53,652 nucleotides of DNA from an uncultured Planctomycetia bacterium (GTDB lineage: Bacteria > Omnitrophota > Gorgyraeia > 2-01-FULL-45-10): positions 1-53,652 of the forward strand of contig CAYVCD010000002.1 of NCBI GenBank assembly GCA_964450115.1, read 5' to 3'. Positions 1 through 44,300 of this stretch are shown one piece after another. The first letter of the stretch is position 1. Every line of letters starts with the position of its first letter. A program made the translations under genes and the position numbers. The notes below the pieces were generated by a model. That model was not told where the DNA came from, searched no databases, and was given only the letters and a program-made list of their open reading frames with translations.

Positions 1-26
1 CCGCAAGCTTCGCCGTCTCTGCTGAT

Positions 27-1606: not shown

Positions 1607-1616
1607 CTGTAATCGC

Positions 1617-1644
1617 TTGACAGGACCTTTCGGTATGGTAAACT
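1617..1644 (+). promoter_or_regulatory. candidate sigma-70 promoter with extended -10, directly after the ribF stop
   Basis: TTGACA (1617-1622), 16-nt spacer ending in TGg, TAAACT (1639-1644). Predicted only; a start near 1651 would lie upstream of the hairpin at 1697-1731. Confidence 0.45.
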
Positions 1645-1696
1645 AGTATCACGTCTTTAGTTTTACAGCGTAAATAATTCCGGCGTAAATTTTGAT

Positions 1697-1731
1697 AATG
1701 CTTGGCGGCTTAAAGCCCAAGCATTTTTTTA
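1697..1731 (+). terminator. Rho-independent terminator-like hairpin (ribF terminator and/or attenuator in the giant ORF1 leader)
   Basis: AATGCTTGG (1697-1705) pairs with CCAAGCATT (1717-1725), 11-nt loop, followed by a T-run to about 1730. It ends 48 nt before the ORF1 ATG. Confidence 0.7.
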
Positions 1732-1778
1732 TTTGTAAAAATGTTTAATAACTTCAACTAAACAGGAGAAGATAGATA

Positions 1779-7700: not shown

Positions 7701-10475
7701 TCAGGCGGGCAAGAGGATGATGAGGCTAATAATAATCTGAATGCTGTTACTGTGACAAGCCAGACTAAATTCGAAACCGTCCGGGATGAGGCTGCGGCCG
7801 AATTGAAAGCCGAAGGAAAAACAGATGCCGCAGCAAAACTAAGCCAACTGAAGCAAGTCCCATGGCAGTTATCGTACTCTTTTGGCCGCGGGCTGCAAAG
7901 GTCTGGCTTGAGGGCATGGGCAGGCAAAAGCAAAAACTTCGAAAAGGCTCAAGAAGCTTTGCTAGAGGCAGCGCGCACAACACAAAAGGCGCGACTAGGC
8001 TTATTGCGGGCATGGCCGAGGCCAAGCGAAGTTTCGGAGGATAAGCGCGTAGTAGTGCTTATAAGCGGAGGCGAATCTGCGGGAGTCAACAATTATTTCG
8101 CGCAATTGGCGGTCGGACTTGCAGAACAAGGCTATTCGCTGGAAGTCGTGCGGTTCGGCCTCGACGGCCTGGTGCAACCCAGGGAAGAGTTCGCAAAAAA
8201 TCTAGTTTGGATTGACGAGAAGAGATCATACAGCATAATCAATATGCCGGGCGCAGTGGAGGGGACAGCGAGAGTCAGTTTAAGCGATGAGAAACATCCG
8301 GAATATATGCAAAACGCGGTCGCTAATCTTAAGGGTTATTGTAAAACGGTCATCATGGTGGGCGGCAGCGACCATATGGCCGAGGCGACAAAGATATCCA
8401 ATGAACTGCGCGCTCAGGGCATCAATGATATGGTGGTCATAGCGCTTCCGAAGAGCGTAGATTATGATGCGCCCAATGTCTATATGATAGGGGCCGATAC
8501 CGCGGGTTCTTACGCCAATAAATTTGTTATTCGCGCCGCACCTATGCCGTGGGAGAAGAAGGTGGTTGTGAGCGAAATTATGGGTAGGGATAGCGGTTAT
8601 CTGACAGTTAGCGCGGCAAACATGAATACGGCTGACAGGTCAGGATACACCGAGGCCGAATTGAGAAAGATGAAGGCAATAGCGCCTACTTTGATAGCCC
8701 TTATACCGGAATGGTCAGTGGATGAAAGAGGCGCATCCATCGTATCTCTTGCAGATGTCGTCAATGCGGTGAAACGGCGCATGAATAAATATGGCGCTGC
8801 CACTGTCGTTGTTTCCGAGGGATTCAGAATATCGCCGGATGACGAGTTACTCCGGAGAATACTGGAAAACCCGTTCTTTAAGGACAAATTTACGAATGTG
8901 AAAAAAGATAAACAAGGAAATCTGCTCTTTAACGAGATAGGTATAGGCAATTTCGTTACCGAGGCTCTTTCAATAGCGCTCGGCGAGGAGTTAAAGCTCG
9001 AACGGGAGAAGAACCTTTTGTACGAACTCCCGGGATACAGCTTCCGCTGTGTTCAGCCGGGTGAGATCGATATGGCAGTTGCGGACAGCGCAACGGCAAA
9101 AGCTGCGGATATGATAATCAATAGAAGAGATGAAGTTATTCAAAGGGGCGGCGTATGTATAGCAATAAAGCGCGGCATAAAATCCGCATCCGATATTAAA
9201 GCGGAGGTGCGCGACCTTCCGCAATCAAAAGGGACGGTAAGTCTTAAAGATTTTGTTATATTCACAAAAGACGAGCTGGCAGCTAAGAACGTGCTCGGCC
9301 TTGCCGACGAAAGCGCGCCACTTCCGGACATGGGGTCAGCCGCTTCACTGCCAGCGTTCCGTGAGAAAGACTTATCTCTGCTGGTAGAGGCGATTAATTC
9401 CCAGAGCGAATCAGCGCGTGATATGAGGAGATTGAATATATGCACCATAGCCGGTCAGGATGCCGACATGCTGATATCGCGGGTCGCATCGCACAAACCG
9501 TTGTCCTTAGCCGAGAGCTATGTGCATGAAAGAACGTCCGGCGCTGTCATGTATGTTACAGCGGGCCAATCCGGTGCTTTGTCATTGGGAAGATTGATCG
9601 ACGAGATAAACCAGCGCTATACGGCAAATCAGCATGGGATAAGATTCGCGAATGTGGTGATCTCTGCGAATGTCCTGTTTAAAGAAAACGATGAAACACT
9701 TGTAAGACTGCAAAAAGATAATCCGTCATTTGCAGCTCTTGTGGCGGCAGCCAAAAAAGATGCTGACGGTTTCCTGAATTTCGGCCGTCATATAGCGGAT
9801 GTTGTAACGATGGCGCTATCTATCGATAAAAAGATATCAGGCATAAGAAAGAATGTGCTCGGCGAATCGCTGAATTCTCTGCCGCAGGTCGCGCCTGCGC
9901 CAGCGCCTGAAGTGGCGATAGAAAGCAGCGTATCGGTACTACAGGGTATTATGAAGCTGGTCCAGGCGGAGTGGCTCGATGGTTGGCTGAATTTCGAAGG
10001 GCTTGCCAAGGCTGTGCAGCTGGCTGAGTGTCAGGGGAAGATCATAACAGATGACGATAATTCTACGATGATATTCTCCGAGATATCGACATTCGGAAAA
10101 CGCAATGAGGACGGCACCTATGAAGAGGGCTTAGGCATTATACTGCCAAGCCTCGTGAAGTCGGATATCAGGGTAGCCGTAGTGGCTACAACAAGCCGGC
10201 AGAAGGTGCTGATAGACGAGCTTAACGCAGGCCTGACCGAGGGCCAACAGATCATACATGCCGAAAGCGTTCCGGAGGTAATGGCAAAGATAAAGACGGC
10301 GCGCTACTATTACTTCAAGGTAGCGTCCGAAGCCGATGCCGGAACCGGCGTTACATCGATAACGATCATAGTAAAGAAGATACTCGACGCGATAGGGAAG
10401 GTAGCGGATATCATCAATCCTACAGTGATCGAACAGATGCACGAAGCTGCGCGTCAATTCGCGGCTGCGGCGTAA
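1779..10475 (+). CDS. giant multidomain protein 1 (2,898 aa): signal-peptide-like N-terminus, unknown modules, class I aldolase + PFK-like domains
   Basis: Uninterrupted 8,697-nt frame. AGGAG Shine-Dalgarno about 8 nt upstream of ATG 1779. N-terminus [30 protein letters not shown]. Seven Pro/Ala linkers split it into modules. Aldolase and PFK motifs are listed separately. Confidence 0.9.
   Translation: [2898 protein letters not shown]
5550..5573 (+). repeat. Pro/Ala linker nucleotide motif (copy encoding PAATPAPA)
   Basis: CCTGCGGCAACGCCAGCGCCGGCA is 23/24 identical to 6870-6893. Shorter versions (GCGCCTGCGGCAAC or close variants) occur at 4086-4099, 4515-4528, 5118-5134 and 9891-9911, plus a P/A stretch at 6071-6100. 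Confidence 0.8.
6870..6893 (+). repeat. Pro/Ala linker nucleotide motif (copy immediately upstream of the aldolase domain)
   Basis: CCTGCGGCAACGCCGGCGCCGGCA encodes PAATPAPA; 23/24 identical to 5550-5573. Confidence 0.8.
6900..7990 (+). other. class I fructose-bisphosphate aldolase domain inside giant ORF1
   Basis: [44 protein letters not shown] matches the class I FBA N-terminal signature. Also PIIEPEVL, Schiff-base-type Lys in VVLKTSMIL (AAA at 7575-7577), LSGGQE and SYSFGRGLQ. Confidence 0.85.
8043..9180 (+). other. phosphofructokinase-family (PFK-like, divergent) domain inside giant ORF1
   Basis: [15 protein letters not shown] (cf. SGGDAPGMN), [13 protein letters not shown] (cf. GGDGS), ALPKSVDYD (cf. 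PGTIDND), [10 protein letters not shown] (cf. MGR), PGYSFRC (cf. GHIQRGG). Several substrate-binding positions are substituted, so activity is uncertain. Confidence 0.7.
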
Positions 10476-10497
10476 AGAGAACGAGCTTACTTTAACC

Positions 10498-10525
10498 AGT
10501 AGGGCACCTTTAAAGGTGCCCTACT
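10498..10525 (+). terminator. perfect 28-nt palindrome after giant ORF1 (hairpin without a clear U-tract)
   Basis: AGTAGGGCACCTTT|AAAGGTGCCCTACT, 23 nt after the ORF1 stop. No T-run follows, so it could be a weak or factor-dependent terminator or an RNA-stability hairpin. Confidence 0.4.
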
Positions 10526-10551
10526 CGGTATATATCCCTCGAATAATTCGC

Positions 10552-10580
10552 TTTACAATCAAATACATCTATGATATGAT
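10552..10580 (+). promoter_or_regulatory. candidate rpsO promoter (extended -10)
   Basis: TTTACA (10552-10557), 17-nt spacer ending TGa, TATGAT (10575-10580). AGGAAAGG Shine-Dalgarno precedes ATG 10607. Confidence 0.45.
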
Positions 10581-10606
10581 GCCTCAAACAATAGGAAAGG
10601 TATAAA

Positions 10607-10876
10607 ATGAGTTTAACAAAAGTGAAGAAGACGGAGTTGATAGGCGGCTATAAGGTGCATGAAAAAGACACCGGTTCGCCAGCTGTGCAGGTAGCGCTTT
10701 TAACGGAACGGATAAATTCTCTTTCAGGCCATTTCAAATCGCATAAGAAAGACCACCATTCAAGGCAGGGGTTACTGCGCATGGTCAGTGTCCGTAGAAG
10801 ACTTCTGGAGTATCTAAAGAAGAAGAGCCCGGATGAATATCAGGGCATCATAAAGAAACTGGACTTAAGGAAATAG
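10607..10876 (+). CDS. rpsO: 30S ribosomal protein S15
   Basis: 89 aa. [52 protein letters not shown] is the S15 signature. Canonical position upstream of pnp. Confidence 0.95.
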
Positions 10877-10942
10877 TCCCTTGTTTCTTTATGCATATCA
10901 GCGACACCCCTTACAAATAAACCCCATAACCATAAAGGATAA

Positions 10943-13078
10943 ATGATGCAAAAATTTGAAAGAAATTTAGACCGCGAGAAGATAATCATCGAAACAGGCA
11001 GGATGGCCAAGCAGGCGGACGGCGCGGTCACCGTCCAGCTCGGTGGCACAGTAGTCCTCGTTACAGCTGTCTGTTCAAAGCGTTTAAGACCCGATCTTGA
11101 TTTCTTCCCCATGACATGCGAATACCAGGAGAAGACCTATGCCGCAGGGAAGATCCCGGGAGGTTTCTTCAAACGCGAAGGCCGTCCAACAGAGAAGGAG
11201 ATATTGACCGCCCGCCTGATAGACAGGCCCATAAGGCCGTTATTCGGCAAGGGTTTCATGAATGAGCTTCAGTTGGTGGCCATAGTCATTTCCAGCGACA
11301 GCGAGAACGATTCCGACATACTGGCCATGATAGGCGCATCCACAGCCCTCACGATATCGGATATTCCGTTCAACGGGCCGATAGCCGCGGTAAGAGTGGG
11401 TAGGATCGGCGGAGAGTTCGTATTGAACCCGACATTTAAAGAATTAGAGTCAAGCGACCTGGATCTCGTGGTAGCCGGTAACAGGACGAGCGTTCTTATG
11501 GTAGAGTCCGGAAGCAAAGAGTTGCCGGAAGATACGCTTTTGGATGCCATAAAGTTCGGCCATAAAGAGATGCAGGTCATCATAGACCTACAGGAAGAGA
11601 TGGCGAAGGCCTGCGGAAAGCCGAAGAGAGAGATCGCTCTGCGTGACGTGGACGCGGATCTTTTGAAGAGCGTCAAAAGCGGTTCGGTCGCTAAATTAGA
11701 CGAGGTAAACAGATTAAGCACCAAAGAACAGCGCGAAGAGGCGATGGACCTGCTCCTGAAAGATCTTGTAGAGAAGCTCGTTACGGAGGAGTCCGAGGTT
11801 TCCGAAAAAGATGTCAAATACGCGCTTGAGGAAGTTGAAAAAGAAGAGGTCAGGAAGTTCATCGTAGAGAAGAGAAAGCGCGTTGATGGTAGAAAATTTG
11901 ATGAGATAAGAAAGATCACATGCGAAGTCGGGCTATTGCCCAGGACTCATGGGTCGGGCTTATTCACAAGAGGCCAGACGCAGAGCCTGTCGGTCACCAC
12001 TTTAGGTACAAGCGCTGACGAGCAGATCATAGACGCCCTGGAGGGTGAGTCGCAGAAGGGCTTTATGCTGCACTATAACTTCCCGCCGTTCTCGGTCGGA
12101 GAGGTGAAGCCGATGAGAGGCCCCGGAAGGCGCGAGATAGGACACGGCGCTTTAGCGGAAAGAGCCTTAAGGCCGGTCATGCCGAGCAAAGATGCTTTCC
12201 CTTATACGGTAAGGGTTGTTTCTGATATATTGGAGTCGAACGGTTCGTCAAGCATGGCGACCGTGTGCGCAAGCACTCTTTCGCTTATGGATGCCGGCGT
12301 GCCGGTCTCCGATCCTGTCAGCGGTATAGCGATGGGCCTAATTAAGGAAGATAAAGAGGTCATCATATTGACAGATATAGGCGGAGTCGAGGACCATTAC
12401 GGAGACATGGACTTCAAAGCGGCAGGCACGAAGAATGGAGTCACCGCCCTACAGATGGACTTGAAGATACAGGGGATAAGTTACGAAGTGCTTAAAGAGG
12501 CTCTTGAGTCCGCCAAGAAAGCCCGCCTCGTCATATTGGAAAAGATGATGCAGGTCATAGGCCAGCCGAAGAACGATGTTTCGACATTTGCGCCCAAGAT
12601 AGTGGTCCTGAAAATTAATGTGGAGAAGATCGGCGCGGTCATCGGACCCGGCGGCAAGATAATAAAGAAGATAATACAGGATACGGGCGCCACGGTAGAT
12701 ATAGACGACGACGGCACTGTACAGGTTGCGGGTACCGATCCCAAGGCCATAGAGATGGCGGTAGCCATAATAAAAGGCATAACCGAAGAGCCTGAGGTAG
12801 GCAAGGTATACAGGGCAAAAGTAAAAAAGATCATGAACTTCGGAGTTTTTGTAGAGATACTCCCGGGGAAAGAGGGCCTTGTGCACGTTTCGGAGCTTTC
12901 CAATACATTCGTAAAGAACGTGGAAGAGGTAGCCAAGCTCGGCGATGAATTCGATGTGAAGCTTACGGAGATAGACGCGCAGGGCAGGCTAAATCTTTCG
13001 AAGAAACAGGCGGACCCGAACTACAAGCCCGGCGATGATAAAGGGAAGCCCCAGGACGATTCGCGCCGCCGCAGATAA
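10943..13078 (+). CDS. pnp: polyribonucleotide nucleotidyltransferase (PNPase)
   Basis: 711 aa. IETGRMAKQADGAV start, two RNase PH-like halves (FPPFSVGE, GRREIGHGALAERAL), a KH segment (GPGGKIIKKI) and an S1 domain (GKVYRAKVKKIMNFGVFVEILPGKEGLVHVSEL). Confidence 0.95.
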   Translation: MMQKFERNLDREKIIIETGRMAKQADGAVTVQLGGTVVLVTAVCSKRLRPDLDFFPMTCEYQEKTYAAGKIPGGFFKREGRPTEKEILTARLIDRPIRPLFGKGFMNELQLVAIVISSDSENDSDILAMIGASTALTISDIPFNGPIAAVRVGRIGGEFVLNPTFKELESSDLDLVVAGNRTSVLMVESGSKELPEDTLLDAIKFGHKEMQVIIDLQEEMAKACGKPKREIALRDVDADLLKSVKSGSVAKLDEVNRLSTKEQREEAMDLLLKDLVEKLVTEESEVSEKDVKYALEEVEKEEVRKFIVEKRKRVDGRKFDEIRKITCEVGLLPRTHGSGLFTRGQTQSLSVTTLGTSADEQIIDALEGESQKGFMLHYNFPPFSVGEVKPMRGPGRREIGHGALAERALRPVMPSKDAFPYTVRVVSDILESNGSSSMATVCASTLSLMDAGVPVSDPVSGIAMGLIKEDKEVIILTDIGGVEDHYGDMDFKAAGTKNGVTALQMDLKIQGISYEVLKEALESAKKARLVILEKMMQVIGQPKNDVSTFAPKIVVLKINVEKIGAVIGPGGKIIKKIIQDTGATVDIDDDGTVQVAGTDPKAIEMAVAIIKGITEEPEVGKVYRAKVKKIMNFGVFVEILPGKEGLVHVSELSNTFVKNVEEVAKLGDEFDVKLTEIDAQGRLNLSKKQADPNYKPGDDKGKPQDDSRRRR

Positions 13079-29300: not shown

Positions 29301-32300
29301 ACATCCAATTTACGTCTGGTGATCTCAATAGCTAAGAAACATAGAGGGCCGCGCCTTCAGTTCCAGGATCTTATACAGGAAGGGAATATAGGCTTATTAA
29401 CGGCTGTCAGCAGGTTCAAGCCTCAGAAAGGATACAAATTTTCCACATATGCGACATACTGGATCAGGCAGGCGATACAGAGATATGTTGAAGATAATAA
29501 GAATCATATAAGAATACCATCCTTTAGATATGACAGGGTGAATAAATTCCGCAAAATTTGTGAAAAAAAGCAGATAGATCCTTTTGATAAGAAAATGGAT
29601 CCGTCACAAATAGCTAAGGCGATCGGGTGGAAGGTGACCGAAGTAAAAAGAATGTTAGAAATATTATCGCTTATGTCAACAGCGTCTTTAGACTCTGCTC
29701 CCGATGGTAAAAATAAGCATGACATAGAATTTTCCTACGCAGCCAATACCGTTCAAAATGATCAAGGTCCTGGTATTCTTGAGCGGCAGGATGTGATCGA
29801 TGCCATTGTAAAGAATACTATAGAGCTGATAAGACAGAGGTCCAGGGAGAATAAAGAAAGAGATGCATCGGTATTTATATTGAGGATTCTCCCGGTCTTA
29901 TTGGGTACCGGCAAGAGCGTGCCGACCCTGAAAGAGATGAGCATGCGTTTTAAAATTTCGAAAGAGAGGGTTCGCCAGATTGTTAATAAATGCCAAACTG
30001 CTCTTGAGGATGCGTTGGCCTACATGGGCTTAAAAGTAGAAGATCTCGGTATGACCAAGAGACGTTCTGTAGCGAGCGACAAGGGTGAGCCGAAAGAATA
30101 TCACGGGCCGAGTGCCGGAAGAACGTCACCGATACGTTTACGCAGTCGCAATCTTCCCAGTGCTCCGGCTCGAGTGAAGCCGCGATTCAAAGGGTCGCCC
30201 TATGCCGTATTTCTTAATCTTAAAAAAGGTTCAGCATCGGTAGAGGAACTGCTCGGGATGATAAGCGGCGGAATAAAGAGCGCCCAGACGATAGAAGATG
30301 ACTTGAGAATATTACGCAGGGCCGGCGTAGTGGCTTCGTTAAGAGTAAAGTCGAGAGGCCCTGTCTTTAGAATATACGGGAAAATCGGTAAAACAAAGTT
30401 GGCAAGCATAGAATCGTTGCTGGAAGGATCTTACAGTCCGGGTAATATTACAAAAAATAGCCGCGGGACAGGCAGACAATTTGTAATAAGAAAATTACGC
30501 GAAATAGTCCTTTTTGATCCCGCAAGAACCGCCAGACAGTCGCCTGAGGAAATAGGCCGGGAAGCAAGAACGCTCCTGCTCAAGGAAAGCCTTGAGAGCC
30601 TCGAGGCCACTATCATGGCGTCTATGGTAGATGGCAAGGAAAGAACGGACCTTGTAAAGCTGATACGCGCTCGTATAAAAGGGGTCATTTCAGGACCATC
30701 TCCGGCCCGGGCCGAATGGGATGAAACAAGATGGACCGGTTCGGACACGCTCCCCAAGCGCCATTCGCTCGCCATACCCGGCGCGGAAGATGATATTATT
30801 AATACTTTTACGATAGGAAAGGGGCCGAGAAGATTAGCTGAGGGCGGAGCTATCCACTGTAATTATCTCTTCGCATACGATCCTGCGTCAAAGATAGGCG
30901 CTGCGGCGCATATCAGTTTAATAGATATGGACCCATTAAATGATAAAGATGTGGAGAGCGTTTCTAAAGGTATCAGAACTTTGGTAGAGACATTACAGCA
31001 TGCGGGAGCTAACGCGGCAGAACTGCGATTCACCATAGTGAGAAAAAAGGACGTCGCTCCTATCGAAGAGCTGTCTTTGCGGACCGAGGCTATGCTGGTC
31101 AATGCTTTTGGTAAGCTTGGGTTAATAAATTTTAATAGATCCCTAGTCGATAATGACTCGATGGTATTTTTGGATCTCGCAACCGGGGGCATATCACAAG
31201 AGGATAGGTCAGTAACCAATACCAAAATATCTGCTGATATTCTCAAGGCTATCGAATCGGATATCGCCGGTTTCGGATTGCGCACCTGTCTTGCCAAATC
31301 AGCGTTGCTTATATATATTTTGCGATCTTTAGGTGAAGAGGCAACGCTCATCGGCATGTTTCGCAAGGATGAAGACATGCCTTTTCAGTATTTGGTGCGT
31401 ACCGTTAGATGGGGGGACAGGGATATATCTCCTTTTGGTGGGGAGGCCGATGATTACGAGCGTACGGTCCCGGTACCTGAAACAGATTACGAAAGAGGCT
31501 TGTCATCTTTAAGAGAAGGAGGGTATCTTGCAAGAGCCGACCTGGAAATTTTAAACGCTTATAAAAAGGTGGTCCCAAATGCATTTGACATAGATGATGG
31601 CACGCTGATCTATGCTTTTGATTATGACGGAACTCTAGCGGATGCCACCGGACGCATGCAGGATGAAATTTCCGCGAGCTTGATCGCGCGCCTTAAGGCG
31701 GGTAAGAAGGTGGTTATGATAACAGGCAGGAACACCGCTTCACTGCATCATTATTTCTCATCCTATATACCTTTAGAGACACTTAAGCGGTACCATAAAA
31801 ATATTATATTTATGGCGGAATTGGGAACCGAAGTCGGGCGCTTCAACGAAGATGGAGAGCTATATGTAGACCGGAAGAACAGTATGCCTCTCGATAGCGC
31901 GAAAAAACGCCAAATAGACGCGGTCTGTTATGAGGTGCTCCAGAAGCGCGGGCTGCACAATATAGGTGGAATAAATACAAGGATACTCCCTCATACCAAT
32001 CCGGGAGAATATCCCAAAGGCAAATCTATTGAAATAGGTTTGGAAAAATACGGGACTGTCACCATCCGGTTCTGGGAAGAGTCTTTAATGCATCATATGC
32101 CCGGGGTCGTCGAGGACCTGAGGCAGGGGTTAGTAGATATCGGATTTTATGTTGCGGCATCAAATGCAGCTATAGATATATCACCGATCGACAAGGCCGA
32201 CGCTGTGAAGAAGCTATTATCGATTATTAAAGACGAAGATGGCGAAGATATACCGCTTTCGAGTGTAGCAGTGTGTGGTGATAGCCAAAACGATTACGCT

Positions 32301-35300
32301 ATGCTGGGTATGAGTGTTGTCAAAGCAATATATGTAGGAAATAAAGAAAAGAAGGACCTGCCTGCCGCCGTTGCGGCAAACGTGCATATTCCTGCGAAGC
32401 GCGGTCCGGACGGGGTATTGGAGATATTAAGGAGTGGGTCGTTCTCTGCGCCCACGCAGGGTGGCGAACCCGCCGCCATGTCGAAGCCGGAGCCGGAAGC
32501 GCAGATCGCGCGCGGCGTCAATACGACAAAATTGTCCGAAGAACTTGTTGCCGAACGGAAGTTGATCTACGATATCCATAGCCGATGGCCGGCGGCGGTC
32601 ACGGTATTCGGGAGCGCGAGGATCCCGGAGAGCGATCCGTCATTCGTTAAGGCAAAGGAGCTGGGAGTCGCATTATACCGGGCAGGCCTTTCGATAAGGA
32701 CAGGCGCCGGTCCGTCTATGATGGAAGCGCCTTTCATGGGCTATCTCGAAGAACGGGAAAGATCCGGCGCGGCCAAGGAGCTATGGAACACGACCCAGGG
32801 CATACGCATAGAAGGCCTGCAGATCGAGCAGCATACGACCAAGTTTGTTGAGGATAACTACAGCTTTGATCATTTTGTCACAAGAAAGATGGGCCTTTAT
32901 AATAACTGCCGCGGCATAGTGGTGTTTCCCGGGGGATTCGGAACGGTGGACGAACTTATTGAAGTATGGTTCAGGAAGATACCGATGGTATTGATCGGCA
33001 AGAGTTACTGGCAGCCTATCATAGACGCCATTTACCGAAGCTGGGCGGCAAAAGGATGGATGGAGTTGATCGAAGAGAAGCCGCTGATCACGGATTCGAT
33101 CGAAGAGGCAGTGGCTCATATCCGTTCGTCCAAAAAAGATCTTATGATAGAGTCAAGGGAAGATATGGAAGCGGCGAATGAGGATATAAGGTCCTCTCTT
33201 GTGACCCTCGAAACCTGGCAGCCGGCTGTTACCGTTATGGGTCAATCGGAGCTCTTAGATAATGTAGAAGCGGACGTGTTGACCGAGATGACGAAAGAAC
33301 TGCTCGCAAAAGGGATACCTGTGCGCTCGGCGACCGCGAACCATTACCTGAAAGTGACTCTGGAGAATGCCGCAGGGGACAAAAAAGATATGCTCCAGGC
33401 AGTACTGGCCGTTCCAAAGGAGAGCGCGCTAGTCCCGGGGCCGAATCGCATAGTTACCCATAATCTATCTAATCATCACGTTCTGGTAACCGAGAATTCG
33501 CGCGCTTTCGTCATTCTGCCCGGCCGCGCGAAGACACTCAGCCGTCTCTTTGACCTGGTAACGGTGATGCAGACAAAAAAAGTCAAGACCAGGCCCATCA
33601 TATTAGTAGGCAGTAAATTTTGGCAGCCGATAAAAGACGCGATCAAGGATGCGGCTCTCGAATATCCCTCAGGGCAGCTCATAAATCCGGAAGACGCTGA
33701 TTTGCTTCAAATAGTCGACACCGCCGAAGAAGCTCTTCGGATCATCAACATTGTAGATGCAGGTAGCATAGTTAGGGATGCGACCCGAATCGCGCGCCCT
33801 GGCGACATGCCGCCCGGCCCGAGAAATCCACGCGACAGATTCTTTAAACAGCCGCCGGATGAAGTATCGGAAGCGGCTACCAATAAGACGTATAAACCCG
33901 TGTCGCCTATCGGTGAAGACGATATTGTTACAGCGTTTAAGAAGGGATGGGAATACATCTGGATGCGCAGCACCAGAAAGGCAAAAGGCCGGTTCCTGCG
34001 GGAGGCCGCCAAAGCGCTGAAAAGAGAGCCGGGAGTATTAATAGTTAATGATTTAACATATGGGCTAAAGCGGATATGGGGGCACTCTGCGAGCGGGCTT
34101 ATAATATGGACAATGAAAAAATTCCGTATTAAGAATCCGACGGCTGCAATGAAGGCATTAAAGCGATATGTCGGTATAAAGGCAGTGCCGTGGACTAGAT
34201 ACGGGCAGCCTATCGGTGAAGACGATATTGTTACGGCGTTTAAGAAGAGATGGAAACACATCTGGGTGCGCAGCACCAGAAAGGCAAAAGGCCGGTTCCT
34301 GCGGGAGGCCGCCAAAGCGCTGAAAAAAGAGCCTGGAGCATTGACTGAACCCGATTTAAGGAATGGATTAAAGCGTGCATGGGGACGCTCTGCGAATGGG
34401 CTCACCAATTGGGCGAGAGAAGAATTTGATGTTCGGAGTTCAAAAGCGATTATGGAAGAATTGATGCGGTATGCCGGTATAGAACCAACGTCTCAGTCTA
34501 GACGTGTGATTGTAGAAGATATCACAGAAAAGACAATTTTACAGCATCTTAAGAAAAGGACCCGGAATATATGGTTAAGAAGCAACAGAGATGCCAAGAG
34601 AATGGCAGTCCTTTTACTTGCCAGAGAGCGGAACAAAGAGCCCAGAAAATTAAATGCGAAAGATTTTATTACTCCGATCCCATTATTTGGAAATCGTAGT
34701 ATAGGCGGAATTATACATTGGGCGCGCCACCACTTAGGTGTACAGGCGGGTGCTATGAGCAGTTATTTGCAAGCTATCCTTGACCTTAAAGAGTACCTTG
34801 GGATAGAAGATACTATTGTGCCGAAGAAGAGATGGGAAGCCAAGGTGGAGGCAGACTGGGGTGAGGTATGCGTCATACTGGATAAGTATGAGCATCTGAA
34901 AACCACGGAAGCAAATGTCCGCACGATCCTTAAAGGATGCCGTTTTAATAATAAGGAAACCGATCTGGCTATGGGACGGGAAGTTCAAAGAGGGAATCCA
35001 GCCGCTAGGGAAGCCATGATGATAGTTTATGAGACCGCCCTCGACTATCCGGCGGCAGGATTCAATAGAAGATATCCCGATATCAGTGTCGATGAATTCA
35101 AGTCCGCCGGCAGGATCGCTCTTGCCGGATGCGTTGAGCGCTATGATCCGGAAAGGGGTTTCGTATTCATAACGTTCATAGGCTACAGGAGCGACAGTAA
35201 GCGCGTCTTCGGACGCATCTCGGGTGCGATGGTCGATCTTGTCAGGAAAGTCCATGGCACCAGGCGAAAGGGGAAGGTGCGCGAAGTCCAGGGCGGAGCC

Positions 35301-38300
35301 CTTAAAGACTCTAAAGGTAAGGATGTGCCCTATATGGGCGAGGTCGCGGAAGGTGATGTCGCCAGAAGAAAACGTACCGAAAAAATGGCGGAACTATCCC
35401 AGGGGATCGCCGACCAAATAGGGGCAATACTTTCTAAGTCGCTTAAAAGTAGAAATAAGGAAAGAAATATAGAAATATTTATAGCAAATATTTCCGGTAA
35501 GCCACAATGGGAAATAGCGCGGCAATTTAATTTGACTGATTCCCGCGTTAGTCAGATCGTGAGCCAGTGCCGCCAGATCCTGCGAAACTCCAAAGATATA
35601 TTAGCTTCGAATGTTGTAGCATCCGGCGAGAGGATCGCGCGCCCTGGCGATATGCCGCCCGGCCCGAGAAATCCACGCGACAGATTCTTTAAACAGTCGC
35701 CGGATGAATACGGAGTGCCTTCAGCTAGAATGACCCCAGATAAGGATACCTGGCAGAATACGGATCCGCATCGCGAATACAGCCCGGCATTCAGCGAGAG
35801 CATCGTCTTGGCATTCGATAATTTGAAGCGGGACGGGGCGATACAAGAGACGCCTCTTATCTACATGCCGGCTCTAAGCAGGATGGCCGGGAAGAAGGTT
35901 TATCTGAAGGATGAATCACATCAACACGGCGGCTCGTTCAAGATACGAGGCGTGGCGTGGAGGATAAACGAGGCGATAGCGGAGCATATTAAAGGAATGG
36001 TCGAAGACCCGTCACTATGCGAAAAGCCGTTTTATATCGTTACGCAGACCGACGGAAATCACGGTGTCGCCACTATTGAGGCCACCAGGCTTTTGATAGA
36101 AAAATATAAAATGATCTATCCGGGTATCGCATCCGGCATTAATAAGATAGAGCCGATAGTATTCGGTATTAAGAATATGCCGGAAGTAAAAAAAGAGCTC
36201 ATGGCGAAAGCCCTCTCGGCTTACCGCAAGAGCGTTGGGCTTGCCGACCGGGGCATGGAGGACCTTGAATTTGCGAATTATGCCAAAGCCAAAGAAGCAA
36301 GGGAAGCATTTATCGCCGTAAATAAAGAGAGGTCCGCATACATAGAGCATGGAGGCGAAAGGATAATGGCGGGTCATGCAACGGCGGGTCTAGAGATAGA
36401 CGGGCAGCTTAAGATGCTCGGAATAGGCGACGACCGGAAGGTGGCGGTGCTCGTACCCGTCGGCGAAGGCGGCCCGGTGGGAATAGGCGCAGGAATAAAA
36501 TTAAATAGAAAGAATGCCAAAGCAGTGATAGTGCAGACGAGCGCATACCCGGCATTTGTGCGCACATTGCAAACAGGGGAGCTGGTATCCAATGAGCCCA
36601 ACCCGGCTCCGACAATTGTTTTAAAAGGTAAAAATATCGTATTTGAGGACGGCATAGCGGTCGATAAGCCCGCACCGGAAGCGGTCTCTGTAGCAGGGTC
36701 CGTCATAGACGCGGCCGTAGTTGTCGACTCAAGGTCCAGCCTTGACAGGGCCGCTCCTATATTATTGCGCGATCTGCGCGAGGCTACAAAAAATAATACG
36801 GCCGTAATAGGCGGCACCACATCAGCGACAGCAGAGGCGCTTATCCAATATCATGAGAGCCTGGCCGCGCTTAAAGAGGCGGATGTCATTGTGCTCTTTG
36901 GCACTGAAGGCAATGTCGATCCCGATCTTGTCGAATACATAGAATCGCGCATGAGAGAATCAGGGCCGTCACCGTATATGGAAAAGAATCATGATGCGTT
37001 AGCAAACGTCCAGATCATTCCGGCCAAAGAGAGTAAATATAAGACTTTCATTTTTGATCTTGGTAATGTGTTGCGCCTTTTTGATAATTCACGTATGGCG
37101 GCCGGTCTTAAGCCATATACGCATTTTAGCGAAGCGCAGATTCTAGAGAGACTTAAATCGTCCGAGGCAAAGCGCTTGTCCAGTATAGGCAGGATAGGTA
37201 ATGCAGATTTTATCAAGGCAATCAAAGAAGACCTTCAACTTAAAGACATAGACGATGAGACTTTCGTCAGGATCTATAATGATATTTACACTGATATCCC
37301 CCAGATGTTTGAACTCCTAAAGAAGCTTAAAACCGCCGGATACAGGATCGCGATACTTTCAGATATTACAAAAATACATTACGAATATACGCTGGCTACT
37401 TTGCCTGTAAGGCAGTATCTGGACGGATTCTTTGCATCATGCGAGCTCGGCGTTACCAAGCCGAACAGGGAAGCGTATTTGAAAGTCCTGTCCGCGCTTG
37501 ATGTAAGGCCCGAAGAGACGGTATTTATAGATGATACGCCTGCCAATGCTGATGGCGCAAAAAAACTCAATATTGCGGGAGTGCGGTTTGAAAACTTTAA
37601 AGTTCTGCTAGATGAATTATTTAAATTGGGTATTGCCAGCGATATGAAGGCGATTAAGTTGCGAAAATTGGCAGTGACAGGGGACGATCCAGAAGGTGCC
37701 GCCCCGCAAGCTCAAAACGATGAGGTGTCCCCAAATGGACCGTCCCCGGATACGGATGCTTCCAGCGCTACGGATAGGATGACAAAAGAGAGCAAGGTCC
37801 CTGAGAGGCACAGGCCGTCTTTTGGTCATCTGGTCTGGCTTAGAATAAGAAATATTTTTGAAAGAATCAAAGGCAGAAAGATAAACTATGTATCCGTATT
37901 AAAGGGCCTGCGAAAGTATGGCCCTAAGCATATTTTACTAATTACCGATTTTCGTGATGAGAAGAGAAGGATCGGAGATCTGATTCTATTTTATACCACG
38001 TTTGTGAAAGTTCTGCTTGGCCTCTATCCGGATTCAGACGTTACTATTGTGACAAGTCAGCCTGAGCTCTGGAGCAAGACTAATGGTAGGTTGAAGATTA
38101 TTCCGCAGGAAATGCTTATCAATATTGCGAGAAAAGATTCAGCTGGCATGCAGGCCGAATTGAAAAAGGTTAAGGAAGGGTTAGGGATAGATTTAATGAT
38201 AAACCTTGATAGGCATGACATGCCTGCTTTCAGGCAGGCAGCAAAAGAGGTCTTTCCGATAAGTTTCTTTGCCAATGCTGGCAAAGGGGCTTTGTTGAAT

Positions 38301-41300
38301 ACTCCGGATTTTGAAGAAGATTTGCCTCTCTTGCCATGGACGGACACATTTTGTAAGCAACTTAATATTGCCGGACAGGGACTTGATTTTGAAAGAGAAG
38401 CATTGGGATCGCATCAGTCAGACAAAAGAGATATATTATTCGATGTTACGCCCAAGGACAGGGAATGGCTGCGTTCGATTTTAGGCTTAGGCAATAATCC
38501 CATTCTATTACTTAATATATTCTCTATGAGGGAATGGAAGGACTGGCGGAACGCCGATGAAATAGCATATTTTATAACGACGCTTGTCAAAGAAAAGAAG
38601 ATGAAGGTTGTTATGCCGGCTCCCAGAAGCGCCGAACAACAGCAGCTTCTTATAAAAATATCCAAGCTGATACCGGCCGAGTTCAAAAAAGGTTTAATAA
38701 TCCCGGATCGCGGTTCACTGCAAACCTTGAAACTTATGATCGATGCGTCCGACTACGTGGTGACCGTCGATACGGGAGTAAGCCATCTCGCGGCCGCTTT
38801 AGGAAAAGAGCCGATAGTCCTATATTACCGCAGTTTTCGCAACAGGACATATTTTATTACGCTTCCGTGGCTGCCGTTTGCCACAAAAAAAAGCAAGTCC
38901 TATCTGACTTCAGCGATCCCTTCGGCATATCCGGCGGGAAAGATACTGGAGAAGATAGATTCGCAAATGCTTCGAAAGCAGGCTGTGAAGGAAGCGGTCA
39001 TGGTAAATGGCTGTGAAGTCATAACTAATGGCAAGAGTGAAGACCTTAAGTTAGAAATAAAAGGAGCGCTTGGCCTTAGAATAGAATATGACAGCGTTAG
39101 TGACGCGCTTGCGATAACGCGATCAGGACAAGTTCCATATTCAATTATTTTAAATGTCAAACCCGCGATCGATCAGAAAGAAAAAGGCGAAAGATTGTGG
39201 GCATATCATAGGACGAAGACAAAAAACTTTTCTTATCTTGACGAGAATAAGTCTAATGTGGAATTTTCCGATAGAGCATATGATAATCTCGTATTTGCTG
39301 AATCCGGGTCAGTATATTTGCATGCAGTTGCCGGCCTAAGCGTCATAAAGACCAAAGACGGCATTAAGATATACGGCGGGAACTATTTTAACGAGGCTGC
39401 GGACAGGATAACTGATCTACTGAAAGGTAAACAGCTCATCTATAGGAGGCCGGCGCATATATTGGAAAGGGTAAGAGAAAAGACCACCGAAAACGGCGTA
39501 AGGGATATTGTGGCCCGCTATTACGGTTTTGAAATATTGAGAGTGAGCGAAATTACAGGAGGCAGGGCGCAGGGTACGGTATTTCTCATAGAGACAAAAG
39601 ATTCGCGCAAGTATGTTTTCAAATTTTTAGGCAGAGATATAAAAGCTGCCGAAAGGCTTGTCCAAATATCGGGCAGTCTTAAAGAGTTCTTCCCGGCTCC
39701 CATAAAGGTAGCTATGCGTGATGAGCGCATTGTGAATGATGTTTTAATAAATGTAAACGGTGAGTTTGCCGCATTGGAGGAATATATCGAATCGCAGCGA
39801 ACAGGATCATACGATAGAGAATATTATTACAGCCTGGGCAGGAGGATGGCGGAATTCCATGAGCGCGGGAAGGCCTTGATCGATATGATCGGACCCGGTA
39901 GCGGCGGCTCTCTGCGGGGTTCCAATGCTATTTCAGCAGCCATGGTAAAGATGGAGCTTGTCATAGCCAGAAACAGCCTTTTGGTCAAAGCAGGCTTATT
40001 GAATAAGCCTGAGGAATATTTCCTTAAGATAAGTGATTCTCTGATAAATGAGTCGGAAAATATGTTGAATATAGATATAGAAAAGATCTTGCAAAATTCA
40101 CCACACAGACTTTTACACAACGATCTGTCAAGGGCAAATGTTTTGAAGGATGATTCCGGCAAATTGCGCTTCATCGATCTTGAAACATCAGGCGTTGGCA
40201 ATCGCGTACTTGATTTTACTCTGGCAATAATTGGCAACGCCGCATATAAGCCCCTAGAGTACGTGCCCGGAAGCCTTCAAGAGCTCATCACGGGGTATAA
40301 TTCGTACTCCGACGTACCGCTGACGGAAGATGAGGTTTTGGCGATAAAATGGCATATTATTCACAGGTTCCTTCTACAATTTATGGTAGATACAATTAAG
40401 AATCCGATAGAAAGAGACGGTCATCTTGACAAATTGTACAATGCATTTAAATCATACTGCGAGGAGTGTCCAATAAGCAAAGCAGGCGGTTCAAAAGTCC
40501 GTAAAGAAGGCATGATGCTGGATGCTGATGCGTCTTTGCAAAAGTTCGGCAATGATGATCAGCTTACTGAAGTACCGCCTAAAAGGGTGCCATTTGCCGT
40601 GAATTATCCCTTGGATATTTTTGAGGAAGAGACACCGGTAGGCTTGTCGGTATTTGATAATCAGGATGTGCTAAAACAGAGACTCAATGATAATATATAT
40701 TATTCTCAGGCACCACCCGACAGAAGAGAGAGGATATTTCAACGCATATTATTCCTGAAGAATGTTCTGCCATCCATCAATAAGTATTTCGCCGCAAATC
40801 ACCCCGAGCTTGAGATAATAAACATATCACTTTTTGGTTCATATGGCTATGCAGACGACGATGCTTCTCCTTCCGATATCGATTTTCTTGTCACTGTGCG
40901 CGGAAACATATTTGCGTTGGAGGAGATACAGATAGACCCTCAGCGGGATGACTTTTCAAAGTATCTTCCCTCATCAGTTAAGTCATTGGGATTCTCTATA
41001 AAGGGGGACGAGAACTTGCGCACCGGCGCTATAGATAAAACCACGTCGGTCAGGCCGCAGATGCAAAGGATCGTGCTGGACCGCACCGTTACAACATTGC
41101 GCGCGCGCCATATCGTTATATCAGGGCCAAATTTCAGGGAAGGACGGGACCTGATAAAGAGGAATGGATTATCGCATGTATCTGACTTGCTGTTTAATGC
41201 GTATATACGCCTGTTCGCAATAGATACTTTAAGAGGCGGATCGGAGGCGCAACGTCTGCGTAAGGTGCTTGCAAGGCTTTATGACGCGGCCATATATATG

Positions 41301-44300
41301 GCATATTTATATCCTTCTGAAAACGTAGATCCGGAGAGGATATATCAATTGAGAGTAAAGTTCGTAAATGGTAAAGCCGGGCAGGAAGAAGTTATCAATG
41401 AATGGGAAGCCGTTAAGTCCATTTTTGACAAGATCCATACAGAGTCGAGTGTCGTATCGGATAATTCCGGAGTGGCAGGGCGCATAGGCACCGGACATCC
41501 TAAGCAGTTATTTGCGTTCGATTATGACGGAACACTTGCGACTCCGGGTGGGCGCCTGAGCCATAATATGCTCGAACAGCTTGCGTATATACTTCTGGCC
41601 GGGCATGGAGTTGCGATAATAACAGCAAGGAATAAGGGGTGGTTCAGCGAAAACAATATATCTGTGGCCGCGTCTGTAATGGAGACCATCTTCCGATTGC
41701 GCCCAGCTATAACAGAATCTGAGCTAAACAGATGCATGGAAAAGATGTTTATGTTTACGGCGCGCGGAACTGAAAAATATTATTATCAATTTGCAGGCGG
41801 CACCTTAAATGAAAAGCTGGACATGAATTATTCGGCGTCATTCAGCAGCGATGATATTGCAAAGATAATGGATATAATACGAGCCATACTTCGAGATAAA
41901 GGCATTGAGGAAGATCTTGCAGAAAAAGAAGTTGTTGCCGTAAACAGGGAGCTTTCGGGAGCAATAAATATTCGCATATCGTTTAAAGCCGGAAGCAAGG
42001 GCATGATCTTAAAGGATGAAGTCGCCAATGAAATTAAAGAAGCTTTTAATAAAGAAAAGAGCTTATCGTCAGCTGCGGTAGAGATTTTTAGTAGAGGCAT
42101 AGGCATTAACCCCAAGGATAAGGCGGATGCTCTACGGCATTTAATGAAAAACATGGGATATAGCGGCATTGAATATTTTGGGAATGACCGTGATTCGGGT
42201 GATAAGAGCGCCTTTGAATTGGCGCAATCATGCAGAACGGGATTATTAGTATGTACCGAGGTGCCCGGGCCGGAAAGGATGCTGGAATTTATTAAATCTT
42301 ATAGAGGTAGGTCGCCTCCGCTACTTCCACTAAAAATACTCAAAAACAAAAAGACTAAGGATTTTGTCTTAAGGCGTCTAGGCCAATATTGGACTTTGAC
42401 GGAATTCCCGGTTGAATGGCTTGGTGAAATAATCGAACAGCTTGATAATTACTCCGATAACGAAGAGGTGGCGCTCAGGGTAGTACAGGAGAAGTTTCCA
42501 GAGCTGATAGATAAAGATTCGATGTTTAACAAAAAACTGAGGGCATTCAGGAAGATAAAGGTAAAGAATCTGGCCCAACGCGTTTCCTCATTTGTTAGTG
42601 GCCCTGTATTTATGGATTTTGGTGGCAGGGTGACTGATTTTGCGCGGGAGATTCTTCAGCAAAATACGTCTATGCAAAAAGTGGTTGTTACGGATATCCT
42701 GCCGCTTGACAAGCAGCCAGATGACCCACGAATAGAATTTGTGACACAACCGGAGTTATTCTCGACTTCGATGCCCCCTTCCTCCGTTGACACAATATTT
42801 GTATCGATGGTGCTTCATCATATGGACTATCTTACAAGACAGCGAACATTTAACCATCTGTATGACATATTGAAACCGGGAGGCCGCCTCATAATAGTAG
42901 AAGATAGTTATCCGCAGAACGATGGCGCAGCGAAGCAGGAAGACATTTTAATGAAGGAATTTTTGTCTTTCTCCGCACAGGAAAAATTCGAGCTTCTATG
43001 TTTCTTTGACTGGTTCGGAAATTGTCTTACCAGAAACCGGTCTAAAGCGATGTTAACCTATGCCTATGAACCGATGGAATATTGGGAGGGCCTGCTTTAT
43101 GGGCTTGGCATGAAAAAGATCGAATCGCAGTTTATCAATATCAATTTAGACCGTATCGACCTAGTGCCTCCGAAAGCATTGTTTGTATTTGAAAAGAATA
43201 CGGTAGGTCTATTGCCCAAACCGGAGTCGCCAGACATGGAGAAGGACGAGTCGCGGGGGAAGGATAGTTTATTAATGGATAAATTACCCGAACCTGATCA
43301 TAATCCTGATGAAGAAGGTGCCATGCCAGAAAGCGCCAACCCAGTCGCCAGTTCGGACGATGAAAAGCCTGCAAGTGATCCGCGCTACAAAACTTTGCTC
43401 GCACCGGAGCCCGGTAGTCCGGAAGAGGCGTACCAACGCCAGGTGAATCTGCCGGGGATCGGTGCGCCGTCAAGGCATAGTTTAAGATTCCGTCAGAGTG
43501 ATGATGTGAGCGAGCCGAAACCGCCGACGAAGATGGCGGGGGAAGAAAAGCTGGGAGTTTTAGTACGGGACGAATCCCATGCAAACGTGGCCGCAACCGG
43601 AAAGCACCGCGTAATAATATTGACTCCACGTCCTAATAGCGGGCGACATGAGCGAGAGATGAAATTAAATAGAATAAAGCATTCCCGTCAGCTTGACAGT
43701 GCTATAGGTGGGTTTTTTGAGGAGATATTGCCTCGGGCGCCACAGGGAACCGTAATGCGCCGTGAAATTAGCTGGCAGGAAAGGATAGGCACCGCTTTAG
43801 AAAACCCGAAGCTCGATGGAAACAAAAAAATCAAGGGTTTGAGTAGCGGGATAACCTCAATAATCGATCCGGGTACTCATAAGATCAAAGATATCAATGC
43901 GCTGCTTACACTAAACGCGAATTTTTACTTAGCAAACGGGCTTGGAGATATATTCGCATATTTCCAACATATTTCGCAGAATAGGCATGAATACGGATTT
44001 GATATCCCAAGAGAGGTAAGCCTTCCGGCTTATATCCTGTATTATTTTGGATTTGTATGGAAAAATCCGAAAGATCCGGAAGACGATGTATGGAAACGAT
44101 ATCTTAGGACGATAGTCAGGCCTGTAACGTACCCTTCTGCAGACCAGAGGCGGGAATTCAGAAGTAAATTGACAGCAAGCCTTAGTGAGGCAGGCAGCCT
44201 CAACCCGCTCGGAAAGATCAAAGACTTTGACGCTTTCACGCGTGTTGATAGCGTAGATTTCCTTATGAGTAACGGATCTAGCAGCGTATATCGTAGCTTC

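Follow-up and report, generated by a model that had tools for sequence, protein, structure and literature searches.

Part of an Omnitrophota giant protein appears to be the fused equivalent of an archaeal kinase, nucleotidyltransferase, phosphatase and methyltransferase operon

The window analyzed here, a stretch of 53,652 nucleotides from an uncultured bacterium of the phylum Omnitrophota, is an entire 53.6-kb contig (CAYVCD010000002.1) of a source genome of 1.57 Mb that is 89.6% complete, and holds three very long open reading frames (ORFs) amid housekeeping genes including pnp, uppP, ftsK, rodZ, miaB, pgsA and pgpA. The largest ORF on the contig (26328..51566, plus strand) runs for 8,412 amino acids (aa) without a stop and contains all the modules that concern us. 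These form a block of seven domains at 36990-43202 (aa 3555-5625), in the order HAD1, a GT9-like glycosyltransferase, a domain that we term X, an APH-fold kinase (X-KIN together with X), a nucleotidyltransferase (NT), HAD2 and a methyltransferase (MT); X-KIN, NT, HAD2 and MT are referred to below as the cassette. A first-pass annotation, made from the sequence alone, had described six enzyme modules in a row at 37041-43195 (aa 3572-5623 of the giant ORF). Its modules were confirmed by Pfam and NCBIfam and its span is continuous in one ORF, with three corrections, namely that the block starts at ~36990, that X, lying between GT9 and the kinase, brings the number of domains to seven, and that a pyridoxal phosphate-dependent, dehydratase-like module directly precedes the block.

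Since the ~2,050 codons of the block stay open at 44% GC, its reading frame is not there by chance. No competing ORF of at least 150 aa was found inside the block, the sole overlapping ORF (162 aa, minus strand, 43141-43629) touching its last bases only. Promoter- and terminator-like sites were no more frequent within the block than in shuffled sequence. A hydrophobicity scan of the giant ORF detected membrane-type segments at aa 31-49 and ~380-482 only, which places the block in the soluble part of the chain.

X (39033..39527, plus strand, aa 4236-4400) is a beta-rich N-terminal domain specific to the kinase family, and recurs as a conserved feature of X-kinase proteins 430-520 aa long. It had no match in Pfam or NCBIfam, and its beta strands were modeled by AlphaFold2 (AF2) at a predicted local distance difference test score (pLDDT) of 70-80. 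The APH/ELK-fold kinase that follows (39528..40502, plus strand, aa 4401-4725) carries the motifs YVFKF, HNDLSRAN (40110-40145) and IDLE and matches PF01636 in Pfam at 24.6 bits against a cut-off of 23.2. Across 16 homologues H362, D364 and N369 are invariant and D382 is nearly so, and the catalytic loop, the downstream metal-binding Asp and the N-lobe Lys of the APH fold are all present. A single-sequence search of the PDB with the kinase returned nothing significant and a family profile was needed; this profile matched YihE/SrkA (1.4e-5), MTR kinase and amicoumacin kinase. The top Foldseek matches of the low-confidence kinase model were APH(9), YtaA, NahK (N-acetylhexosamine 1-kinase), fructosamine-3-kinase, homoserine kinase and YihE, with no protein kinases among the matches of this model.

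NT (40545..41447, plus strand, aa 4740-5040) belongs to the Pol-beta superfamily and has a helical C-domain, with the motifs PFxxxYP, FGS, DID and GDEN. It had no Pfam match and its single sequence retrieved nothing significant from the PDB. Nevertheless clear is its hG[GS]...DxD...[DE] signature, in which G98, S99, D111 and D113 are invariant in the family alignment and position 156 is a conserved [DE], preceded by a family-specific conserved N-terminal motif, PFxIxYPxxIF. The family profile matched an MNT-type nucleotidyltransferase (9xbd, 6.4e-6) and AadA (6sxj, 2e-3) in the PDB. The AF2 model of NT is confident (pLDDT 89.7, predicted template modeling score 0.87), and its nearest solved structure is AadA/ANT(3'')(9) (probability 0.99, TM 0.36-0.40, E = 9e-3). 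The PF01636 match and the Pol-beta signature thereby uphold an earlier remark that the kinase is APH-like and the nucleotidyltransferase Pol-beta-like, neither being of the HldE type. A word-index search with the NT alignment gave a single match, a short-contig protein. For a locus scan the diverse NT alignment proved too variable; a narrower one found one genome locus (L012, that is G187:C1, CAZGOZ010000001.1), which encodes a 1,381-aa protein with a signal-like N-terminus, an NT of the family and a C-terminal HAD; the labels of this genome conflict, the record being titled 'uncultured Planctomycetia bacterium' and the genome being placed in the class of the window genome.

HAD2 (41460..42332, plus strand, aa 5045-5335) is probably a HAD-IIB-type phosphatase, with the motifs FDYDGTL, ITAR and KDK; it gave a weak Hydrolase_3 match, 28.9 bits against the 41.8-bit cut-off of TIGR01484, and nothing significant in a single-sequence PDB search. 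MT (42333..43202, plus strand, aa 5336-5625) is a class I S-adenosylmethionine (SAM) methyltransferase with a helical N-extension and the motifs DFGGR, VTDI, HH, EDSYP and FFDWFGN, and matches Methyltransf_23 in Pfam at 27.2 bits against a cut-off of 27. As befits class I enzymes, D95, G97 and G98 of the DFGGR loop are invariant in the family and VTDI follows; the matches of the family profile in the PDB are small-molecule O- and N-methyltransferases. The same MT family is present in other metagenome giant ORFs, each at least 4,100 aa long and with GC 0.50 (L042/L043, ORF 2-12691; L060, ORF 1-12444), as a tandem MT-MT pair in L042/L043 and likewise in a 5,022-aa protein (P0003), and is in this sense a recurrent giant-protein module even without the rest of the cassette.

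A phmmer search with aa 4400-5599 against 1.84 billion representative proteins returned 325 matches, and the modules of the window were mapped onto the best 150 of these, to which the following observations apply. One protein of 1,268 aa (P0002) is built as X-KIN-NT-HAD2, and in it a cytidine/dCMP-deaminase domain separates NT from HAD2. HAD2 is fused to MT in P0004 and the kinase to MT in P0118, while NT-MT fusions were found in five proteins (P0005-8 and P0136), one of them, P0005, with the deaminase inserted; X-KIN also exists by itself, as a family of proteins 430-520 aa long. Members of the cassette have been joined to one another repeatedly and independently (kinase-NT, NT-MT, HAD-MT and kinase-MT).

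With the MT alignment as seed, metagenome contigs were scanned for related loci; 56 were obtained, and their ORFs were searched with the X-KIN, NT and MT profiles. About 20 of the loci, with GC between 0.27 and 0.36, carry a compact co-directional operon of overlapping genes in the order of the window. This order reads X-KIN, NT, HAD2-MT in five loci (L038, L041, L051, L052 and L053), X-KIN, NT-MT in seven (L044, L045, L048, L049, L054, L058 and L061) and X-KIN, NT-deaminase-MT in L064, L066, L067, L069 and L070; L056 holds an NT-deaminase-MT fusion in a locus sequence without the upstream region. A branch-1 histidine phosphatase (His_Phos_1) adjoins the operon in 16 loci (e.g., L049:10872-11423), including every plain NT-MT locus, that is, without HAD2, and also some HAD2 loci, and a TIM barrel resembling AP-endonuclease-2 (AP_endonuc_2) and xylose isomerase abuts it on the same strand in seven (e.g., L041:10875-11612). 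As follows from this distribution, each operon variant keeps kinase, NT, MT and at least one phosphoesterase; the phosphatase step appears to be a clear case of non-orthologous displacement, in which HAD-IIB, histidine phosphatase and TIM barrel alternate or combine.

Among the genes adjacent to the operon are a class I lysyl-tRNA synthetase (479 bits) and a type III RuBisCO (508 bits), both above cut-off, and further neighbors comprise matches to RecJ_archaeal, archaeal-type SecD and a FlaI-like ATPase as well as RtcB. Because such archaeal marker genes adjoin the operon, we take its hosts to be DPANN-like archaea; several of the operon contigs come from 0.1-µm groundwater fractions. One locus also holds a 126-nt tRNA (L069:2462-2587), found by Rfam and missed by ARAGORN in bacterial mode, probably an intron-containing archaeal tRNA. 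Maximum-likelihood trees of NT and X-KIN are congruent, and this agreement suggests that the cassette has been inherited as a unit. In these trees the window's NT and X-KIN group with P0002, P0010, P0013, P0024 and P0028, which are less AT-biased, beside the archaeal clade and not within it, and this group is separate from the NTs found in the phylum's other giant proteins. The window's cassette is colinear with L038, L041, L051, L052, L053 and P0002, and each member retains the invariants of its family. As far as sequence comparison can tell, the four-enzyme cassette is thus the fused, colinear equivalent of an operon that low-GC archaea carry as overlapping genes. We found no description of this cassette in the literature searched.

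The first two domains of the block have different relatives. HAD1 (36990..37652, plus strand, aa 3555-3775), a YihX-like phosphatase of type HAD-IA, carries the motifs FDLGNV (37047-37073), LSD, TKP and DD and matches PF00702 over aa 3571-3746 (81 bits, cut-off 26.4). Its best NCBIfam match, glucose-1-phosphatase YihX, scores 87.7 bits and does not reach the equivalog cut-off of 295; by its four motifs HAD1 is accordingly placed as a HAD-IA member at the level of the family, a score of this size assigning no substrate. It aligns motif for motif, at 24-33% identity, with a ~210-aa housekeeping HAD that is present in 35 of 41 related genomes. This standalone HAD, which the window genome also encodes elsewhere, is the only match to the block in 40 related genomes, five of them of the same genus, and HAD1 is a diverged paralogue of this YihX-like housekeeping phosphatase of the phylum itself. 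A linker rich in G, A, R and P (37653..37814, plus strand, GC 0.556, GARP fraction 0.35), probably disordered, joins it to the GT9-like glycosyltransferase (37815..39032, plus strand, aa 3830-4235), which has a GT-B fold and the motifs IGD and TVDTGVSHLAAALG. GT9 matches PF01075 at 34.9 bits (cut-off 22), and TVDTGVSHLAAALG aligns with residues 238-279 of WaaC, the donor-site region. Against the lipopolysaccharide heptosyltransferase equivalog TIGR02193 it scores 48.2 bits where 185.3 are needed, and lower still against other such models. Neither a word-index homologue search with GT9 and X nor a single-sequence PDB search with GT9 gave any match or anything significant, respectively. Full-length GT9 relatives, 31-32% identical, were found in two genomes only of a 401-genome sample of the phylum, and both keep the IGD and TVDTGVSHLAAALG motifs. 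The relative in G058 is a standalone protein of 546 aa whose neighbors are a TMEM260-like GT-C/TPR protein and an LCM-type methyltransferase, and that in G341 is a fragment of another giant ORF; no cassette members lie near either. Nor was a window GT9, HAD1 or pyridoxal phosphate (PLP) module, the last of which directly precedes the block, found in the best 150 of the 325 homologues. Sequence searches across the 56 loci detected no GT9-type transferase with the archaeal operon and no glycosyltransferase among its conserved neighbors. In these homologues, loci and genomes GT9 and HAD1 were never found with cassette members, which makes the string of six modules a composite.

This result bears on the reading put forward in the first-pass annotation, a pathway on a string; as a single nucleotide-sugar pathway, it would have kinase, HAD and nucleotidyltransferase make a nucleoside diphosphate (NDP)-sugar, GT9 use the sugar and MT tailor the product. 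Its reaction types match the logic of ADP-heptose synthesis followed by GT9 (HldE, GmhB, WaaC/WaaF), for its kinase, HAD, nucleotidyl transfer and GT9-fold transferase all have counterparts in the block, and GT9 is intact, with the donor-site motif D-T-G-x-S-H-L-A conserved as in heptosyltransferases. The modules moreover share one stretch free of linker repeats and a common low GC, the anomeric sugar kinase NahK is among the structural neighbors of the kinase, and HAD-IIB enzymes typically act on sugar phosphates. The folds, however, differ from those of the ADP-heptose system: the kinase has the APH fold and not that of PfkB, the nucleotidyltransferase is of the Pol-beta fold and not cytidylyltransferase-like, and the HADs are of types IA and IIB, not IIIA. 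In addition, the WaaC/RfaC/RfaQ equivalogs score far below cut-off, GT9 is unlinked to the other enzymes in any other genome, and neither GT9 nor HAD1 was seen with the cassette in any of 150 representative homologues, 56 metagenome loci or 401 phylum genomes. The conserved neighborhood of the archaeal operon is likewise without a glycosyltransferase, a deaminase partner is unfitting for sugar activation, and we know of no NDP-sugar pyrophosphorylase of the Pol-beta fold. As no comparative evidence ties GT9 to the cassette, the ADP-heptose-like reading is weak, and we regard a single pathway as unlikely.

Other elements of the first-pass annotation fared differently. The partners that recur with the cassette are a cytidine/dCMP-type deaminase, a histidine phosphatase and an AP-endonuclease-2-type TIM barrel, with no glycosyltransferase among them. 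A Rosetta-stone check, that is, a search for the same enzymes as an ordinary operon, succeeded for four of the six named modules plus X and failed for HAD1 and GT9. The idea that consecutive-step enzymes were fused into a chain fits the conserved operon and fusion order of X-kinase, NT, HAD-IIB and MT. The annotation's alternative of an antibiotic- or nucleotide-modifying set lies closer to the evidence than the nucleotide-sugar pathway, the nearest solved structures being APH(9) and AadA, to the extent that these comparisons go: APH(9)-Ia and AadA/ANT(3'')(9) are the nearest solved structures to kinase and NT, respectively, and AadA and NT both combine a nucleotidyltransferase domain with a helical bundle and a GS/DxD signature, but sequence identity is 13-15%, TM-scores are 0.3-0.4, and NT has an N-terminal extension of its own (PFxIxYP). 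The window's kinase and NT also differ from aminoglycoside-modifying enzymes in sitting with a phosphatase and a methyltransferase, which resistance does not need.

In the phylum sample the block is unique. It occurs once among the 401 genomes, the full-length X-kinase being confined to the window genome and no other genome holding a cassette-type NT, and a word-index search found it in no protein of comparable length. Other matches to X-kinase in the phylum are kinase-only, score at most 101 bits and in most cases belong to giant ORFs, which reach 74,522 aa. Full-length NTs of other branches of the family are present in G127, G187 and G352, in large proteins with different partners. In the last of these genomes two adjacent large ORFs (L037, G352:C101, 3237-11689, minus strand) bring kinase, NT and MT together a second time in a different construction, one ORF (1,575 aa) having cytidylyltransferase-like, methyltransferase, NAD(P)HX dehydratase and APH kinase modules and the other (1,228 aa) PEMT, an NT of the cassette family and a methyltransferase. 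Generic APH- and nucleotidyltransferase-like modules are found in frames of 74,522, 52,518, 39,654, 37,731 and 35,009 aa (G379:C1, G265:C2, G240:C2, G214:C3 and G224:C9, respectively). A genome of the same genus (G001) has a 7,317-aa ORF (L116/L117, G001:C5, ~20001-40250, minus strand) with a copy of the PLP module at 43-47% identity and with a helical-repeat and sigma module that it also shares with the window's giant gene, and no block-like sequence follows its PLP copy. Order and spacing differ between the two genes, from which we conclude that modules have been reshuffled within the genus.

Such reshuffling is compatible with a different view of the block, in which its modules are independent effector 'warheads' of an exported polyvalent protein, each directed at a different protein, lipid or glycan of host or prey, and are adjacent merely through shuffling. 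The giant protein does have a signal-like N-terminus, and sigma factors, helix-turn-helix (HTH) repeats and unrelated enzymes are mixed in the same chain; module order differs completely in the relative of the same genus, and many giant ORFs of the phylum contain scattered APH- and nucleotidyltransferase-like modules. The polyvalent proteins of phages and conjugative elements provide a precedent (Iyer et al. 2017, PMC5512222), for they too carry many unrelated catalytic domains in one chain and shuffle modules between relatives. Unlike those proteins, the giant gene is chromosomal, amid pnp, uppP, ftsK, miaB and pgsA, and the MT family was not found on viral contigs. Against independent warheads stands the joint inheritance of the four cassette members, in unchanged order, in bacteria and archaea, plain non-giant operons included; the view would further require the export of ~7,900 residues of cofactor-dependent enzymes. 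We consider it quite improbable.

The block lies in a segment of the giant gene bounded by repeats. Self-comparison of the giant ORF detected no linker repeats inside the block; the upstream edge of the segment is the second copy of a junction repeat (35526..35816, plus strand; aa 3067-3163 against 2452-2537, 42% identity, E = 3e-18), and the downstream edge is the first of three copies of a linker cassette (43299..43547, plus strand; aa 5658-5740 against 6781-6852 and 7547-7627). The same segment holds, directly before the block and outside the cassette, the PLP-dependent module (35820..36962, plus strand, fold type II, GC 0.51), which resembles threonine/serine dehydratases (PF00291, 96.8 bits) with all NCBIfam dehydratase matches under cut-off. 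Elsewhere in the giant ORF, at 31590-33680 (aa ~1755-2450), a second HAD-IIB/sucrose-phosphatase-like module and, after it, two LOG ('lysine decarboxylase-like') modules make up another run of enzymes, whose HAD resembles HAD2 in the motif I region only.

The block also stands out in composition, with GC of 0.42-0.45 (36,950-43,200) against 0.51-0.53 on both flanks and 0.472 genome-wide. It falls within the lowest 6% of 6-kb windows of the genome by GC, the dip holds at all three codon positions, and no other low-GC run in the giant gene is as long. A recent import from DPANN archaea was considered as the source of this dip and is not supported, the window's NT and X-kinase belonging to a sister clade with higher-GC proteins; nor does a single import from low-GC archaea explain the island, because HAD1 and GT9, which lie outside the operon-derived cassette, share it. 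The transfer of the cassette between domains of life is, by the placement of these sequences, evidently an old one. A captured operon that has lost its function, and is decaying or carried along as an inert passenger, would agree with the restriction of the block to one species and with the replacement of the first Asp of motif IV by Asn in HAD2. However, the 2,050 codons of the block are free of stops, and all family-invariant catalytic residues are kept in kinase, NT, MT, HAD1 and GT9. An active-site check proposed at the outset gave the same picture, motifs being intact in the family alignments save for the HAD2 substitution and not broadly degenerate, and we attach next to no credence to an inert block.

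Taken together, we favor, at a probability of roughly 60%, a reading in which the block is an in-frame run of seven domains composed of three pieces with separate histories, with X-kinase, NT, HAD2 and MT as a fused operon equivalent acting jointly. The same-order co-inheritance of the four members across two domains of life, in plain operons as well, is what argues for joint action, and the four enzymes probably work together on one substrate. In this scheme the kinase would phosphorylate a hydroxyl group of the substrate at the expense of ATP, NT would then transfer a nucleoside monophosphate from a nucleoside triphosphate, a phosphoester would be hydrolyzed by HAD-IIB, the histidine phosphatase or the TIM-barrel phosphoesterase, and MT would methylate the same substrate with SAM; the fusion would preserve the stoichiometry and co-localization that the operon gives in archaea. 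We infer this order of steps, and it is uncertain because Pol-beta-type nucleotidyltransferases are not known to carry out NDP activation of phosphorylated substrates. As the structural neighbors of kinase, NT and MT suggest, at the level of folds, small-molecule chemistry, the substrate that we favor would be a small molecule that bears a hydroxyl group and includes a ribosyl, sugar or nucleoside-like moiety. Judging by the deaminase partner, it may in some lineages carry an amino-pyrimidine or amino-purine group.

Several observations weigh against this reading. The AF2 model of X-kinase is poor (pLDDT 56), for which reason we claim no more of the fold of X than a beta-rich secondary structure, and the NT model has no neighbor in the PDB at E <= 1e-3 and hence no close structural neighbor. 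Motif IV of HAD2 reads GNDRDSGD against GDSPLEND in the family, its first Asp being changed to Asn (N5286). The low GC is common to all seven domains, and HAD1 and GT9 may thus have come with the cassette. All NCBIfam equivalog models score under cut-off, and we infer every functional step from similarity at the level of folds, which assigns no substrate. We know of no Pol-beta-type nucleotidyltransferases that make NDP-activated intermediates from phosphorylated substrates. Finally, the deaminase and the interchangeable phosphoesterases would fit a nucleic-acid end equally well.

This last point leads to a serious rival, namely a role for the cassette in healing, tagging or editing RNA ends or nucleotides, similar in function to that of Pnkp-Hen1. 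The steps would be phosphorylation of a 5'-OH, removal of a 3'-phosphate or cyclic phosphate, nucleotide addition and methylation of the end, sometimes with deamination of a base. In Pnkp-Hen1 RNA repair a P-loop kinase, a calcineurin-type phosphatase, a covalent ligase-type nucleotidyltransferase and the Hen1 methyltransferase act, and by analogy the same four reaction types are encoded together in the cassette, whose phosphoesterase is replaceable. Many Pol-beta nucleotidyltransferases act on RNA 3' ends. A role at RNA ends would also account for the interchange of HAD, histidine phosphatase and AP-endonuclease-2 TIM barrel and for the CDA/TadA-like deaminase fused between NT and MT, and it is consistent with the presence beside the operon of RtcB at one locus and of aminoacyl-tRNA synthetases at a different one. 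Yet all folds of the cassette differ from those of Pnkp-Hen1, the cassette has no RNA-binding or ligase domain, and polynucleotide kinases with the APH/ELK fold are not known. Kinase, NT and MT all have their closest structural counterparts among small-molecule enzymes, no RNA-binding domain was detected, and RtcB adjoins the operon in a single locus only. We judge this role to be improbable on the whole, though less so than any other alternative to a fused, jointly acting cassette with a small-molecule substrate.

Further candidates were considered. A defense system was discarded, PADLOC returning only marginal generic nucleotidyltransferase or methyltransferase matches and nothing significant, and a viral origin found no support, the MT family not being found on IMG/VR contigs. 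Cobamide nucleotide-loop salvage was not adopted, for the weak best matches of three partners (CobC, CbiR and CpaM) were far below cut-off and no conserved cob genes lay nearby. A link to methionine salvage via RuBisCO was dismissed, the enzyme being of type III and found in three loci only, 2-8 kb away.

The architecture of the giant protein is in itself already known. Giant multi-enzyme proteins of Omnitrophota have been named 'Archaeovorins' (West-Roberts et al. 2023, bioRxiv 10.1101/2023.11.21.568195), and a 'multi-enzyme metabolic cluster' class of them has been distinguished (bioRxiv 10.64898/2026.06.07.730766). As the two papers portray these giants, the window's protein resembles them in being a single N-terminally anchored ORF of several thousand residues (multi-kaa) tiled with unrelated enzyme Pfams, including HAD, methyltransferase, glycosyltransferase and LOG, and at 8.4 kaa it sits at the small end of their range. 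With its many enzyme Pfams and its predicted N-terminal hydrophobic anchor, we count it, from its sequence features, among the multi-enzyme giants of the phylum. In the passages searched, these papers catalogue domains statistically; they equate no run of modules with an operon and mention no kinase/NT/HAD/MT cassette. What is new here, by comparative reading of the genes, is the identification of a module run as a likely fused operon, the definition of the cassette and the evidence that the string is composite.

The cassette is an uncharacterized enzyme set in which at least two families, the X domain and NT, are without a Pfam model, and the NT family, whose fold is predicted with confidence, has no close relative among solved structures. 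With an X-kinase of ~445 aa, an NT of ~290 aa and a HAD2-MT of ~570 aa, the archaeal proteins are of a size that allows their expression in a search for the substrate, and the result would be transferable to the giant protein. A bolder proposal, for which the odds are long, is that the operon encodes an undescribed pathway for tailoring nucleoside metabolites or RNA ends that is common to DPANN-type archaea and the bacterium of the window, and that the bacterium has fused it into an exported giant protein targeting archaeal neighbors. If this were true, it would amount to molecular mimicry by a whole fused operon, an archaeal-type pathway being delivered to or acting on archaeal neighbors, in a phylum that has archaea-preying members. 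The giant proteins of Omnitrophota have been known only as catalogues of domains; the cassette provides a first comparative argument that some adjacent modules of such a giant may form a functional unit.

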